This document shows positions 12,666 to 18,939 of a stretch of DNA of 64,000 bases, one piece after another. How positions within the stretch are numbered: position 1 is the stretch's first letter; each line of letters starts with the position of its first letter. The stretch is taken from NCBI RefSeq assembly GCF_003334405.1, contig NZ_QOWM01000005.1; one strand, given 5' to 3'. Made by a program: the position numbers and the translations under genes. Source of the stretch: Escherichia coli (GTDB lineage: Bacteria > Pseudomonadota > Gammaproteobacteria > Enterobacterales > Enterobacteriaceae). The notes beneath the pieces were generated by a model, which saw only the letters and a list, made by a program, of their open reading frames with translations, made no database searches and was not told where the DNA came from.

Positions 12666-15128
12666 TCAGACTCCTAACTTCCATGAGAGGGTACGCAGCA
12701 GATCGGCAAAGACACCAGCAGCGGTAACGTCATTGCCCGCACCATATCCGCGCAGCACCAACGGCAGCGGCTGATAATAGTGGCTATAGAAGGCCAGGGC
12801 GTTTTCGCCATTTTTCACTTTGAACAGCGGATCATTACCATCCACTTCGGCAATCTTCACGCGACAGACGCCATCTTCATCAATATTGCCAACATAGCGC
12901 AAAACTTTTCCTTCATCACGGGCCTTCGCCACGCGCGCGGCAAAGCGATCGTCGAGCTGTGACAGATTCGCCATAAAAGCGGCAACATCACCCTCGGCGT
13001 TAAACTCTGCGGGCAGCACAGGTTCAATTTCAATATCCGCCAGCTCCAGTTCACGTCCCGTTTCACGGGCGAGAATCAATAGTTTACGCGCCACATCCAT
13101 ACCAGAAAGATCATCTCGCGGATCCGGTTCGGTATAACCCATTTCCCGTGCCAGCGTGGTCGCCTCGGAGAAACTCATGCCTTCGTCTAACTTGCCGAAG
13201 ATATAAGAAAGCGATCCTGAAAGAATGCCGGAGAACTTCATCAATTCATCACCAGCATTGAGCAGATTTTGCAGGTTTTCAATAACCGGTAATCCAGCCC
13301 CAACGTTGGTGTCATAGAGGAATTTCCGCCGCGATTTTTCCGCCGCATGACGCAACAGATGGTAGTAATCCATCGACGAGGTGTTGGCCTTTTTGTTCGG
13401 CGTGACAACGTGGAAACCTTCGCGCAGGAAGTCGGCATATTGATCCGCCACTGCCTGGCTGGAGGTGCAGTCAACAATGACCGGGTTCAGCAGATGATAT
13501 TCTTTCACGAGGCGAATTAAGCGCCCGAGATTAAACGGCTCTTTGGCTTGCGCCAGTTCTTCCTGCCAGTTTTCCAGATTTAGGCCATGCACATTGGTGA
13601 GCAGTGCCTTCGAGTTGGCAACACCGCAGACACGTAAGTCGATATGTTTATTCTTCAGCCAGCTTTGCTGACGCTTCAGTTGCTCCAGCAGCGCACCGCC
13701 AACGCCACCGACGCCAATCACAAACACTTCGATAACCTGATCGGTATTGAACAGCATCTGATGAGTAACGCGCACGCCAGTGGTCGCATCATCGTTATTT
13801 ACCACGACAGAGATTGAGCGTTCAGAAGATCCCTGAGCAATAGCGACAATGTTGATATTGGCGCGGGCCAGCGCGGCAAAGAATTTCGCCGAGATCCCAC
13901 GCAAGGTACGCATACCATCACCTACCACCGAGATAATGGCCAGCCGTTCCGTCACCGCCAGCGGCTCCAGTAAGCCTTCTTTCAGTTCCAGGTAGAACTC
14001 TTCCTGCATTGCCCGTTCAGCCCGCACACAGTCGCTTTGCGGAACGCAGAAACTGATACTGTATTCGGAAGATGATTGCGTAATCAGCACCACGGAAATA
14101 CGGGCGCGTGACATCGCGGCAAAGACGCGCGCCGCCATGCCGACCATTCCTTTCATCCCCGGGCCGGAAACGCTGAACATTGCCATGTTATTCAGATTGG
14201 AAATGCCCTTGACCGGTAATTCGTCTTCATCACGACTGGCACCAATGAGCGTACCTGGTGCTTGAGGATTTCCGGTATTTTTAATCAGGCAAGGGATCTG
14301 GAACTGGGCGATGGGGGTAATGGTGCGGGGGTGAAGAACTTTAGCGCCGAAGTAGGAAAGCTCCATCGCTTCCTGGTAGGACATCGACTTCAACAACCTC
14401 GCATCGGGCACCTGACGCGGGTCGCAGGTATAGACCCCGTCAACGTCCGTCCAAATCTCGCAACAATCGGCGCGTAAACAGGCAGCCAGCACCGCCGCGG
14501 AGTAGTCGGAACCGTTGCGTCCAAGTACCACCAGTTCGCCTTTTTCATTACCGGCGGTGAAGCCTGCCATCAGCACCATGTGATCAGCCGGAATACGACT
14601 TGCCGCAATACGGCGGGTGGACTCAGCAATATCGACGGTAGATTCGAGGTAATGCCCCACTGCCAGTAGTTTTTCGACCGGATCGATAACGGTAACGTTG
14701 TGACCACGCGCTTCTAACACGCCGGCCATAATGGCGATCGACATTTTCTCGCCACGGCAAATCAGCGCAGCGTTAATGCTATCCGGGCACTGCCCTAACA
14801 AACTAATGCCATGCAGGACATGTTTTATTTGGGCAAATTCCTGGTCGACGAAAGTTTTCAATTGCGCCAGCGGGAATCCCGGCTGGGCGGCGGCGAGTCC
14901 CGTCAAAAGTTCGGCAAAAATACGTTCGGCATCGCTGATATTGGGTAAAGCATCCTGGCCGCTAATGGTTTTTTCAATCATCGCCACCAGGTGGTTGGTG
15001 ATTTTGGCGGGGGCAGAGAGGACGGTGGCCACCTGCCCCTGCCTGGCATTGCTTTCCAGAATATCGGCAACCCGCAGAAAACGTTCTGCATTTGCCACTG
15101 ATGTACCGCCGAACTTCAACACTCGCAT
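12666..15128 (-). CDS. thrA: Bifunctional aspartokinase I / homoserine dehydrogenase I, 820 aa
   Basis: Translation begins [20 protein letters not shown]...; first gene of the thr operon after the leader. Confidence 0.97.
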
Positions 15129-15154
15129 GGTTGTTACCTCGTTACCTTTGGTCG

Positions 15155-15191
15155 AAAAAAAAAGCCCGCACTGTCAGGTGCGGGCTTTTTT
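15155..15191 (-). terminator. thr attenuator terminator (stem agcccgcactgtcaggtgcgggct with flanking A/T runs)
   Basis: Hairpin plus U-run between thrL and thrA, read directly from the sequence. Confidence 0.85.
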
Positions 15192-15209
15192 CTGTGTTTC
15201 CTGTACGCG

Positions 15210-15278
<69 letters not shown>

Positions 15279-15488
15279 TGTTGTGTACTCTGTAATTTTT
15301 ATCTGTCTGTGCGCTATGCCTATATTGGTTAAAGTATTTAGTGACCTAAGTCAATAAAATTTTAATTTACTCACGGCAGGTAACCAGTTCAGAAGCTGCT
15401 GTCAGAGACTCTTTTTTTAATCCACACAGAGACATATTGCCCATTGCAGTCAGAATGAAAAGCTGAAAAATACTTACTAAGGCGTTTT

Positions 15489-16175
15489 TTATTTGGTGAT
15501 ATTTTTTTCAATATCATGCAGCAAACGGTGCAACATTGCCGTGTCTCGTTGCTCTAAAAGCCCCAGGCGTTGCTGTAACCAGTCGACCAGTTTTATGTCA
15601 TCAGCCACTGCCAGAGTCGTCAGCAATGCCATGACTCGTTCGCGTAAAGCTTGCAGTTGATGTTGGTCTGCCGTTGTGTCACTTTTCGTCGGTTGTTGTA
15701 TTAATGTTGCTAATTGATAGCAATAGACCATCACTGCCTGCCCCAGATTGAGCGAAGGATAATCCGCCACCATCGGCACACCAGTAAGAACGTCAGCCAA
15801 CGCTAACTCTTCGTTAGTCAACCCGGAATCTTCGCGACCAAACACCAGCGCGGCATGGCTCATCCATGAAGATTTTTCCTCTAACAGCGGCACCAGTTCA
15901 ACTGGCGTGGCGTAGTAATGATATTTCGCCCGACTGCGCGCAGTGGTGGCGACAGTGAAATCGACATCGTGTAACGATTCAACCAGTGTCGGGAAAACTT
16001 TAATATTATCAATAATATCACCAGATCCATGTGCGACCCAGCGAGTGGCTGGCTCCAGATGTGCCTGACTATCGACAATCCGCAGTTCGCTAAACCCCAT
16101 CGTTTTCATTGCCCGCGCCGCTGCCCCAATATTTTCTGCTCTGGCGGGTGCGACCAGAATAATCGTTATACGCAT
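15489..16175 (-). CDS. lasT: SpoU/TrmH-family RNA methyltransferase; start moved to internal ATG (MRITIILVAPAR...), 228 aa
   Basis: ORF track 15489..16196 translation has a SPOUT-methyltransferase fold; position between thr leader region and arcA. Confidence 0.85.
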   Translation of the reverse strand: MRITIILVAPARAENIGAAARAMKTMGFSELRIVDSQAHLEPATRWVAHGSGDIIDNIKVFPTLVESLHDVDFTVATTARSRAKYHYYATPVELVPLLEEKSSWMSHAALVFGREDSGLTNEELALADVLTGVPMVADYPSLNLGQAVMVYCYQLATLIQQPTKSDTTADQHQLQALRERVMALLTTLAVADDIKLVDWLQQRLGLLEQRDTAMLHRLLHDIEKNITK

Positions 16176-16574
16176 ATTGCCACTCTTCTTGACCAAATGA
16201 CCGCGAACAGGGTGATCACTGTCAACTTATTACGCGGTGCGAATTTACAAATCCTTAACGTAAGTCGCAGAAAAAGCCCTTTACTTAGCTTAAAAAAGGC
16301 TAAACTATTTCCTGACTGTACTAACGGTTGAATTGTTAAAAAATGCTACATATCCTTCTGTTTACTTAGGATAATTTTATAAAAAATAAATCTCGACAAT
16401 TGGATTCACCACGTTTATTAGTTGTATGATGCAACTAGTTGGATTATTAAAATAATGTGACGAAAGCTAGCATTTAGATACGATGATTTCATCAAACTGT
16501 TAACGTGCTACAATTGAACTTGATATATGTCAACGAAGCGTAGTTTTATTGGGTGTCCGGCCCCTCTTAGCCTG

Positions 16575-16715
16575 TTATGTTGCTGTTAAAATGGTTAGGA
16601 TGACAGCCGTTTTTGACACTGTCGGGTCCTGAGGGAAAGTACCCACGACCAAGCTAATGATGTTGTTGACGTTGATGGAAAGTGCATCAAGAACGCAATT
16701 ACGTACTTTAGTCAT
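16575..16715 (-). CDS. yjjY: Small protein YjjY, 46 aa (MTKVRNCVLDALSINVNNIISLVVGTFPQDPTVSKTAVILTILTAT)
   Basis: Translated by hand from the minus strand; matches my recollection of the small ORF annotated between arcA and lasT. Below the ORF-track size cutoff. Confidence 0.6.
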   Translation of the reverse strand: MTKVRNCVLDALSINVNNIISLVVGTFPQDPTVSKTAVILTILTAT

Positions 16716-16810
16716 GTTACGCCGATCATGTTAATTTGCAGCATGCATCAGGCAGGTCAGGGACTTTTGTACTTCCTGTTTCGATTTAGTTGGCAATTTA
16801 GGTAGCAAAC

Positions 16811-17527
16811 ATGCAGACCCCGCACATTCTTATCGTTGAAGACGAGTTGGTAACACGCAACACGTTGAAAAGTATTTTCGAAGCGGAAGGCTATGATGTT
16901 TTCGAAGCGACAGATGGCGCGGAAATGCATCAGATCCTCTCTGAATATGACATCAACCTGGTGATCATGGATATCAATCTGCCGGGTAAGAACGGTCTTC
17001 TGTTAGCGCGTGAACTGCGCGAGCAGGCGAATGTTGCGTTGATGTTCCTGACTGGCCGTGACAACGAAGTCGATAAAATTCTCGGCCTCGAAATCGGTGC
17101 AGATGACTACATCACCAAACCGTTCAACCCGCGTGAACTGACGATTCGTGCACGCAACCTGCTGTCCCGTACCATGAATCTGGGTACTGTCAGCGAAGAA
17201 CGTCGTAGCGTTGAAAGCTACAAGTTCAATGGTTGGGAACTGGACATCAACAGCCGTTCGTTGATCGGCCCTGATGGCGAGCAGTACAAGCTGCCGCGCA
17301 GCGAGTTCCGCGCCATGCTTCACTTCTGTGAAAACCCAGGCAAAATTCAGTCCCGTGCTGAACTGCTGAAGAAAATGACCGGCCGTGAGCTGAAACCACA
17401 CGACCGTACTGTAGACGTGACGATCCGCCGTATTCGTAAACATTTCGAATCTACGCCGGATACGCCGGAAATCATCGCCACCATCCACGGTGAAGGTTAT
17501 CGCTTCTGCGGTGATCTGGAAGATTAA
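16811..17527 (+). CDS. arcA: Aerobic respiration control response regulator ArcA (OmpR family), 238 aa
   Basis: Translation begins [33 protein letters not shown]...; receiver domain plus winged-helix output domain. Confidence 0.97.
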
Positions 17528-17543
17528 TCGGCGTTACCACCGT

Positions 17544-17577
17544 CAAAAAAAATGGCGCTTTTTAGCGCCGTTTTTAT
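17544..17577. terminator. Bidirectional rho-independent terminator between convergent arcA and creD
   Basis: Stem ggcgct/agcgcc flanked by an A-run upstream and a T-run downstream, read directly. Confidence 0.6.
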
Positions 17578-17586
17578 TTTTCAACC

Positions 17587-18939
17587 TTATTTCCAGATAC
17601 GTAATTGATCGTCCATTGTAACTTCTTTACTGGCTTTCATTTTCGGCAGTGAAAACGCATACCAGTCGATATTACGAGTCACAAACATCATGCCGGCCAG
17701 CGCCACCACCAGCACACTGGTTCCCAACAACAGCGCGCTATCGGCAGAGTTGAGCAGTCCCCACATCACACCATCCAGCAACAACAGCGCGAGGGTAAAC
17801 AACATGCTGTTGCGCCAGCCTTTCAATACCGCCTGCAAATAAATACCGTTCATTAACGCCCCAATCAGACTGGCGATTATCCATGCCACGGTAAAACCGA
17901 TATGTTCAGAAAGCGCCAGCAAGAGCAAATAAAACATCACCAATGAAAGCCCCACCAGCAAATATTGCATTGGGTGTAAACGTTGCGCGGTGAGCGTTTC
18001 AAAAACAAAGAACGCCATAAAAGTCAGTGCAATCAGCAGAATGGCGTACTTAGTCGCCCGGTCCGTTAATTGGTATTGATCGGCTGGCGTCGTCACTGCG
18101 ACGCTAAACGCGGGGAAGTTTTCCCAGCCGGTATCATTGCCTGAAGCAAAACGCTCACCGAGATTATTAGCAAACCAGCTGCTTTGCCATTGCGCCTGAA
18201 AACCTGACTCGCTAACTTCCCGTTTGGCTGGCAAAAAATCACCTAAAAAACTGGGATGCGGCCAGTTGCTGGTTAAGGTCATTTCGCTATTACGCCCGGC
18301 AGGCACCACAGAAAGATCGCCGGTACCGCTTAAATTCAGGGCCATATTCAGCTTCAGGTTCTGCTTCCGCCAGTCCCCTTCGGGTAAAGGGATATGCACG
18401 CCCTGCCCGCCTTGCTCTAACCCGGTGCCGGGTTCAATGGTCAGCGCCGTTCCGTTAACTTCAGGCGCTTTCACCACACCAATACCACGCGCATCCCCGA
18501 CGCTAATCACAATAAATGGCTTGCCAAAGGTGATATTTGGCGCGTCGAGTTCGCTAAGACGCGAAACATCGAAATCGGCTTTTAGCGTTAAATCACTGTG
18601 CCAGACCTGACCGGTATAAATCCCTATCTTGCGTTCTTCCACGTTCTGATTGCCATCAACCATCAATGACTCAGGTAACCAAAAATGGATAAAACTTCGT
18701 TTCCGCTCCACGGTTTTATCCTCTTCCTGTACCGTATAAAGCTCGGTCACAGGAATAGCGATAAGCGGCCCAACGAGTTTTTGCGGCCCGCTGGTACTTT
18801 GGCGAATCGCATCTTCCACATCGCTACGGTAATCGGCACGTTCGACAATCACCTGCCGAATCAGCATTATCGGAATCAACAACAGCAATACGGCACCAAA
18901 CAGGGTGGTCATTTTCCAGAACAGGGGGGATTTCAACAT
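17587..18939 (-). CDS. creD: Inner membrane protein CreD, 450 aa
   Basis: ORF track translation; last gene of the creABCD cluster. Confidence 0.93.
   Translation of the reverse strand: MLKSPLFWKMTTLFGAVLLLLIPIMLIRQVIVERADYRSDVEDAIRQSTSGPQKLVGPLIAIPVTELYTVQEEDKTVERKRSFIHFWLPESLMVDGNQNVEERKIGIYTGQVWHSDLTLKADFDVSRLSELDAPNITFGKPFIVISVGDARGIGVVKAPEVNGTALTIEPGTGLEQGGQGVHIPLPEGDWRKQNLKLNMALNLSGTGDLSVVPAGRNSEMTLTSNWPHPSFLGDFLPAKREVSESGFQAQWQSSWFANNLGERFASGNDTGWENFPAFSVAVTTPADQYQLTDRATKYAILLIALTFMAFFVFETLTAQRLHPMQYLLVGLSLVMFYLLLLALSEHIGFTVAWIIASLIGALMNGIYLQAVLKGWRNSMLFTLALLLLDGVMWGLLNSADSALLLGTSVLVVALAGMMFVTRNIDWYAFSLPKMKASKEVTMDDQLRIWK

Follow-up and report, generated by a model that had tools for sequence, protein, structure and literature searches.

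yjjY upstream of Escherichia coli arcA: probably an annotation passenger in conserved promoter and leader DNA

Systems related to the arcA upstream region

The closest described system is the arcA regulatory region of Escherichia coli K-12 (Compan and Touati 1994, as cited in the Reg-Seq study PMC7567609), which is the same locus and shows nothing different in kind from the DNA considered here. The Reg-Seq tables report an FNR-dependent arcA transcription start at K-12 position 4640508 on the reverse strand and, citing Compan and Touati, calls it 'one of many'. The DNA analysed is a stretch of 64,000 nucleotides (contig NZ_QOWM01000005.1 of E. coli assembly GCF_003334405.1), hereafter the window; window positions equal 4657117 minus the K-12 coordinate (U00096.3). 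In the literature, yjjY is already regarded as a short open reading frame (ORF) overlapping the arcA promoter. The present comparison makes a modest addition, namely a quantitative account of the lack of a coding signature in yjjY and the finding that the arcA leader is conserved beyond the known sites. The promoter-like element, the FNR box and a TGTTA repeat can be traced to Vibrio, and conservation of the proximal 325 bp extends well past the sites known from K-12, which account for about 100 of these 325 conserved bases.

A second group for comparison is formed by the validated small proteins of E. coli (of the type studied by the Storz laboratory), one of which, ytjE, is encoded in the same intergenic spacer. 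Similar to these, yjjY is short, intergenic, located on a transcribed strand and provided with a curated family name. According to a combined Ribo-RET/Ribo-Api study, ytjE is translated and its product can be detected by western blotting; in all loci examined outside Escherichia, the frame is either disrupted or missing. Whereas ytjE is thus translated and unconserved, yjjY shows the opposite combination: it seems conserved, and neither a coding signature, nor a Shine-Dalgarno sequence, nor a report of translation was found.

Two further classes of systems share features with this locus. In excludon-type systems and other cases of overlapping divergent 5' UTRs, the overlap gives dsRNA (double-stranded RNA) that is cleaved by RNase III; arcA and ytjE-lasT are likewise divergent, with transcripts that overlap over ca. 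420 bp and are captured as dsRNA, and the regulatory consequence of this overlap is only putative. The long 5' leaders of the global regulators rpoS, csgD and flhDC act as sRNA or Hfq hubs. Like these genes, arcA encodes a global regulator and is preceded by a leader that is both long and conserved, but the leaders of the rpoS/csgD/flhDC type have sRNA partners whereas none is known for E. coli arcA.

At a probability of roughly 0.8, we consider the spacer upstream of arcA to be arcA promoter and leader DNA, and yjjY to be an annotation passenger in it rather than a selected protein gene.

The lasT-arcA spacer and its conserved half

The gene order around the spacer is thrA (-), thr leader, lasT/yjtD (-), spacer, arcA (+) and creD (-). 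The spacer comprises 635 bp (16176-16810) and separates the divergent lasT/yjtD and arcA genes (Table 1). Its length follows from taking the ATG at 16175 as the lasT start, as in RefSeq and in other genera (228 aa), rather than the TTG at 16196 from which the ORF listing starts the gene (235 aa). A previous description made from the letters alone, here called the sequence-only reading, had given the spacer length, the divergence of lasT and arcA and a 46-aa ORF on the minus strand, all with exact coordinates; a second annotated small ORF in the spacer, ytjE, had escaped it. Its description of the region as AT-rich also holds, with a GC content of 0.386 versus 0.521 for the window, and this is chiefly due to the lasT-proximal half (GC 0.345, with a minimum of 0.295 at 16300-16499); the arcA-proximal half, with yjjY, has a GC content of 0.425. 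The threonine operon leader (RF00506, 122 bits) is located upstream of thrA at 15155-15274 on the minus strand, as expected.

Table 1. Positions of genes, reading frames and regulatory features in and around the lasT-arcA spacer (window coordinates)
Feature	Position	Strand	Remarks
lasT/yjtD	15489-16175	-	SpoU-family methyltransferase; ATG start at 16175 per RefSeq
ytjE (b4824)	16346-16399	-	17 codons, TTG start, upstream of lasT/yjtD; K-12 RefSeq
p19-captured dsRNA cluster S-383	16349-16770		literature; converted from U00096.2; spans all of yjjY and ytjE
Near-invariant non-coding block	16486-16810	+	arcA -325 to -1; promoter modules and 5' leader of at least 200 nt
Extended -10-like element TGCTACAAT	16506-16514	+	sequence and conservation only
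Reg-Seq FNR activator footprint	16510-16546		-99 to -63 of start 4640508; mapped here
FNR box TTGATATATGTCAA	16520-16533		inside Reg-Seq FNR footprint; matches TTGAT-N4-ATCAA
Reg-Seq CpxR repressor footprint	16545-16553		-64 to -56 of start 4640508; literature supplement, mapped here
Variable patch	16558-16571		alignment; site of IS186 insertion in lab-evolved K-12
ArcA-box-like direct repeat TGTTAtgttgcTGTTA	16573-16588	+	TGTTA-N6-TGTTA, 11-bp spacing; includes yjjY stop codon
yjjY	16575-16715	-	46 codons and TAA, ATG start; RefSeq-annotated in E. coli genomes; no protein-coding substitution signature
Published arcA transcription start	16609	+	K-12 4640508 mapped here; yjjY codon 36
25-codon ORF	16657-16734	+	antisense to yjjY; no codon periodicity
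25-codon ORF	16728-16805	+	ends 5 nt before arcA ATG
arcA ribosome-binding region and start TTTAGGTAGCAAACATG	16797-16813	+	sequence conservation
arcA	16811-17527	+	coding sequence; internal control for coding-type evolution

The spacer was found in 5424 of 5426 complete E. coli genomes, with 100% identity to strain E2865. For other genera, arcA upstream regions were retrieved by exact look-ups of YjjY protein variants, and a yjjY-independent set was obtained by exact look-ups of ArcA protein variants and one genome scan, giving a total of 46 distinct arcA upstream sequences. Among the matches listed in the ArcA genome scan, most were unrelated response regulators, and the usable loci were L002-L009. 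The DNA identity to E. coli across genera amounts to 91-99% in the yjjY stretch and 86-98% in the 95 bp that separate yjjY from arcA. For the coding sequence of arcA it is 85-91%, with proteins that are 96-100% identical, and the corresponding DNA values are 66-77% for lasT and 55-75% for the distal (lasT-proximal) part of the spacer. In E. coli itself, the identity over 16572-16810 reaches 99% or more in 5423 of 5424 genomes, as compared to 3262 of 5424 when a distal spacer segment of the same length is taken. The near-invariant block 16486-16810 is interrupted by variable patches at 16558-16571, 16718-16726 and 16738-16750, and the 9 nt upstream of the yjjY ATG form one of these few patches. 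An island of 66 nt at 16650-16715, corresponding to the first 22 yjjY codons, differs between E. coli and Yersinia at only 3 positions and contains the inverted repeat TTGATG-N7-CATCAA (16672-16690). The distal spacer harbors conserved islands as well, namely TTGGATTCA (16400-16408), GCAACTAGTTG (16431-16441) and GTGAC (16457-16461), which are possible promoter or factor-binding sites; the CTAG within the second of these was noted as conserved in Salmonella (PMC5337935).

The sequence-only reading had further proposed that the spacer must hold the arcA promoters, and this is borne out by the published start at 16609 and by the FNR activator footprint at 16510-16546. The transcription start and the FNR and CpxR footprints are taken from the literature, as are the dsRNA and the arcA-mediated phenotypes discussed below. 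The FNR box and the TGTTA repeat at 16573-16588 are both conserved in Yersinia, Serratia, Tatumella, Photorhabdus and Vibrio, the FNR box having the form TTGATATAAATCAA in Vibrio. The element TGCTACAAT is conserved as far as Photorhabdus, with the counterpart TGTTACATT in Vibrio, and judged by its sequence it would act as a promoter element. The part TTTAGGTA of the arcA ribosome-binding region is conserved as far as Shewanella. By its sequence, the TGTTA repeat is a candidate site of ArcA autoregulation; in the accessible tables of Park 2013, no ArcA ChIP peak is given by coordinate at the arcA control region. An array probe named yjjY in Table S5 of that study has a very high signal (log2 13.2), which shows a 2.6-fold drop in an arcA deletion strain, which fits a probe that reads the arcA leader, not a yjjY mRNA.

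The strong conservation of the block is only partly explained. The constraint would most likely reflect several superimposed layers, with stacked promoters for either strand, sites bound by factors, and functions of the leader or of antisense RNA. A more specific proposal, which we put forward tentatively and rate below even odds, is that the 325-bp block, and notably the leader of ca. 240 nt with the 16650-16715 island, is an ultraconserved multi-layer control element that is mainly constrained by an undescribed post-transcriptional mechanism. This mechanism may be a circuit of antisense RNA and RNase III that involves the ytjE-lasT transcript, or an sRNA or RNA chaperone may dock on the leader. 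In Erwinia amylovora, a translational fusion of arcA is expressed more strongly in response to the sRNA ArcZ, for which a site is predicted ca. 50 nt upstream of the ATG. For E. coli, the predicted duplex of ArcZ with the whole arcA leader was no better than that of 77% of shuffles, and a 25-nt sliding scan gave its best site at 16735-16759 (-23.3 kcal/mol), which is equalled in 21% of shuffled leaders and lies in a variable patch. Since the arcA leader is over-conserved relative to its known sites, it is a target for mutational scanning of the control of a global redox regulator.

Substitution patterns in yjjY

The neighboring arcA gene provides an internal control for the way in which a protein-coding sequence evolves at this locus. 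Among the 46 unique sequences, the minimum numbers of substitutions at the first, second and third codon positions are [10,9,5] in yjjY and [28,5,283] in arcA (contingency p=3e-23), and third positions are variable in 5 of the 46 yjjY codons versus 195 of 238 in arcA (p=1.6e-20). Many of the loci were retrieved via YjjY variants, which inflates the non-synonymous count, but the subset retrieved via ArcA nonetheless agrees, with counts of [4,4,3] for yjjY and [17,1,191] for arcA (p=1.5e-16). Nei-Gojobori comparison of E. coli with 9 lineages gave pS values of 0.38-0.60 and pN values of 0.002-0.024 for arcA; for yjjY these values are 0-0.11 and 0.01-0.09, pN being about equal to pS, which corresponds to a dN/dS of ca. 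1. Synonymous differences between Citrobacter and E. coli number 75 in arcA and 0 in yjjY. Synonymous yjjY alleles make up 7 out of 24 (29%), as compared to 26.7% expected from random single-base changes (p=0.82). In the more distant comparison of E. coli with Yersinia, the 27 differences in yjjY are distributed over the codon positions as [8,10,9], and those in arcA as [15,9,109]. Thus, yjjY gives no sign of protein-level purifying selection, in a test that with only 24 yjjY substitutions has limited power for detecting weak selection of this type.

The length of 46 codons is exact in every Enterobacteriaceae lineage examined but one, and likewise in Yersinia. Intact frames were found in Escherichia, Salmonella-like, Citrobacter, Klebsiella, Enterobacter-like, Siccibacter and Yersinia loci, and in Yersinia the first 22 codons are almost identical in DNA to those of E. 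coli. The start codon is GTG instead of ATG in several genera, in a large set of Enterobacter-like loci (L096, L098, L099, L101, L103, L113, L118 and L130-L138); this change at 16715 converts CATG to CACG on the arcA strand. Two independent assemblies found via ArcA (L123 and L126) carry a +1 insertion in the A-run after 16635, by which the last 18 YjjY residues are replaced while the flanking DNA is still conserved, and frameshifted versions are also present in the protein database (P0014 and P0015). Serratia, Tatumella and Photorhabdus lack the ORF: the start codon is ACG in Serratia fonticola, the Tatumella sequence has no start and a premature stop, and in Photorhabdus no yjjY frame is present. 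The conservation pattern, the absent coding signature and these ORF-breaking variants are results of the present comparison.

Conservation of a small ORF in frame is not evidence of coding where the surrounding nucleotides are frozen. Since the block 16486-16810 barely changes, any ORF within it persists, and with so few substitutions the retention of yjjY is expected by chance. The occurrence of the ORF is also unremarkable by itself, because an ATG-initiated ORF of at least 46 codons is present in 54% of 2000 dinucleotide-preserving shuffles of the 635-bp spacer; when GTG and TTG starts are permitted, this fraction rises to 84%. In this comparison, yjjY has the appearance of a side effect of constraint that acts on regulatory DNA at the level of nucleotides. 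In the mechanism that we propose, 16486-16810 would carry a promoter module that is conserved and responds to FNR, one or more arcA starts (16609) and a long arcA 5' leader. Both strands of this segment would be transcribed, and yjjY would be an ORF on the antisense strand of promoter and leader, with both ends apparently fixed by regulatory sequence that is conserved, namely the TGTTA direct repeat for the stop codon and an invariant leader segment for the start codon. The frame would thus be open in the Enterobacteriaceae because its nucleotides are held nearly fixed by selection on arcA regulation, not on a YjjY protein.

These results bear on what the sequence-only reading had said of yjjY. 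Its doubt about the gene was justified, but its statement that the matter could not be judged from sequence alone was too pessimistic, as comparative analysis answers most of it. The term relic, which it had offered as the alternative to an expressed protein, is the wrong word, there being no sign of a decayed gene. It had named conservation in frame across the Enterobacteriaceae as a check, and frame-disrupting variation in close relatives as an observation that would speak against a protein. The first holds insofar as the 46 codons are kept in most lineages, but not with respect to a coding-type substitution pattern; the second is found in part, as a +1 frameshift and start-less versions occur, yet most Enterobacteriaceae have the frame intact.

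Alternative readings and disruptions of yjjY

The minus-strand RNA over yjjY may itself be functional, either as a cis-antisense RNA or as the long 5' part of the ytjE-lasT transcript, pairing with the arcA leader, being cleaved by RNase III and providing an excludon-like coupling of the two transcription units. We regard this as a possible but doubtful explanation, which is compatible with the reading of yjjY as a passenger in arcA control DNA and would add to the constraint. According to the literature, overlapping transcripts from both strands form dsRNA in vivo in the arcA/lasT spacer. The S-383 cluster, captured with p19 and, as stated in the paper on p19-captured dsRNA, also detected by dsRNA pulldown, extends over 16349-16770, which means that both strands are transcribed across the whole of yjjY. 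In addition, a promoter-like site on the minus strand is conserved (TTAACA at 16734-16729, an 18-nt spacer and TAAAGT at 16710-16705), with ytjE and lasT following downstream on that strand. Against this stand a consensus promoter scan of 16000-17000, which is of little use here as it gave 1 site versus 2.4 expected in shuffles, and a minus-strand fold that is not unusually stable (z=-1.1); a regulatory effect of the antisense RNA on arcA is putative.

It is improbable that yjjY encodes a real, selected small protein, possibly a membrane-associated one, of which the coding signature is masked because overlap with the arcA leader constrains the codons doubly. Most Enterobacteriaceae, and also Yersinia, have the frame of 46 codons intact, transcription of the minus strand makes translation possible, and overlap with heavily constrained DNA could indeed mask a coding signature. 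The best 19-residue hydropathy window of YjjY (1.58) corresponds to a borderline membrane helix. The protein also matches the NCBI-curated equivalog family NF052365 'YjjY' of NCBIfam (96.5 bits, E=7.8e-28, cutoff 70 bits), but this membership is uninformative on gene status since the family is defined by this near-invariant sequence. On the other side, 71% of the yjjY changes are non-synonymous, as with random changes, and the diverged Yersinia codons 23-46 show a flat distribution over the codon positions ([7,9,8]). Only ca. 2% of random changes create a stop codon, so survival of the ORF through 24-27 substitutions is expected by chance. The start is GTG or absent in some lineages and one lineage is frameshifted. 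There is no Shine-Dalgarno sequence: pairing of the 20 nt upstream of yjjY with the anti-Shine-Dalgarno sequence amounts to -1.7 kcal/mol, weaker than the median of random 20-mers (-2.3 kcal/mol), although this is weak evidence as arcA itself reaches only -3.7 kcal/mol. The texts located under the name yjjY in a limited literature search contain no report of its translation, and the name does not occur in the small-protein and ribosome-profiling literature covered by that search, nor in the text and accessible supplement of the Ribo-RET/Ribo-Api reanalysis that reports the neighboring ytjE. Finally, the phenotypes of yjjY disruption have been traced to arcA, as described below.

The ORFs on the arcA strand are quite unlikely to account for the conservation by being translated and controlling arcA translation. 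These are the two 25-codon ORFs of Table 1, the first of which is, in other genera, part of a 61-codon ORF that runs from TTG 16549 to 16734 and is open in Citrobacter. For Salmonella, a pipeline for ribosome-profiling data reported translation of an sORF located upstream of arcA, on the arcA strand and antisense to yjjY, and the ORF at 16728-16805 stops only 5 nt before the arcA ATG. The frames, however, are not conserved. In E. coli the 61-codon ORF is split by a TGA at 16630-16632, which is created by an E. coli-specific T at 16630, and the frame at 16728-16805 is lost through a deletion of 4 nt in L100 and an insertion of 1 nt in L092 and L097. Substitutions in the arcA-strand frames also lack three-base periodicity ([11,17,18], p=0.39). 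Coding in the other five frames and the plus-strand uORFs was rejected on the same grounds, i.e. no periodicity and frames broken in relatives. On the complementary strand, the T at 16630 makes yjjY codon 29 Gln rather than Leu.

A structured cis-regulatory RNA, for example a riboswitch or thermosensor-like leader, is very improbable: the leader is at least 200 nt long and extremely conserved, and the hairpin UUGAUG-N7-CAUCAA (16672-16690) recurs in predicted folds, but an Rfam scan of 15000-18000 at E<=1 gave only the thr leader (15155-15274) and nothing in the spacer 16176-16810, the fold energy of the plus-strand leader is ordinary (z=0.14), and RNAalifold with 17-18 distinct leader sequences found on both strands 0 compensatory pairs and 7 predicted pairs broken by natural variants, in a comparison of low power as the leader sequences barely vary.

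The identity of yjjY matters beyond this locus, since thousands of RefSeq genomes list it as a protein with a name, and yjjY knockouts or transposon hits recur when conjugation, fitness under aminoglycosides, adaptation to the gut or long-term evolution is screened. In evolving cultures, transposon insertions in yjjY are enriched, mostly in the orientation of arcA, and an FRT scar acts likewise; in that study, the yjjY effects are ascribed to altered arcA regulation. A conjugation screen dropped its yjjY hit since the effect was ascribed to arcA, and in Dub-seq experiments arcA and yjjY were required on the same fragment. During gut adaptation, IS insertions beside yjjY raise arcA expression, and a lab-evolved K-12 strain carries an IS186 insertion at K-12 position 4640557, which corresponds to 16560 in the window. 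If yjjY evolves as non-coding arcA control DNA, such hits are better taken as regulatory alleles of arcA, and its annotation merits a doubtful flag. Among natural isolates, ca. 12 of the 5424 E. coli genomes do not have full coverage of 16572-16810. The blood isolate MS20659 (NZ_CP082073.1) carries an IS30 element inside yjjY at ca. 16700 in the arcA orientation, and in strain IAL7255 the spacer is interrupted at ca. 16478, just upstream of the conserved block.
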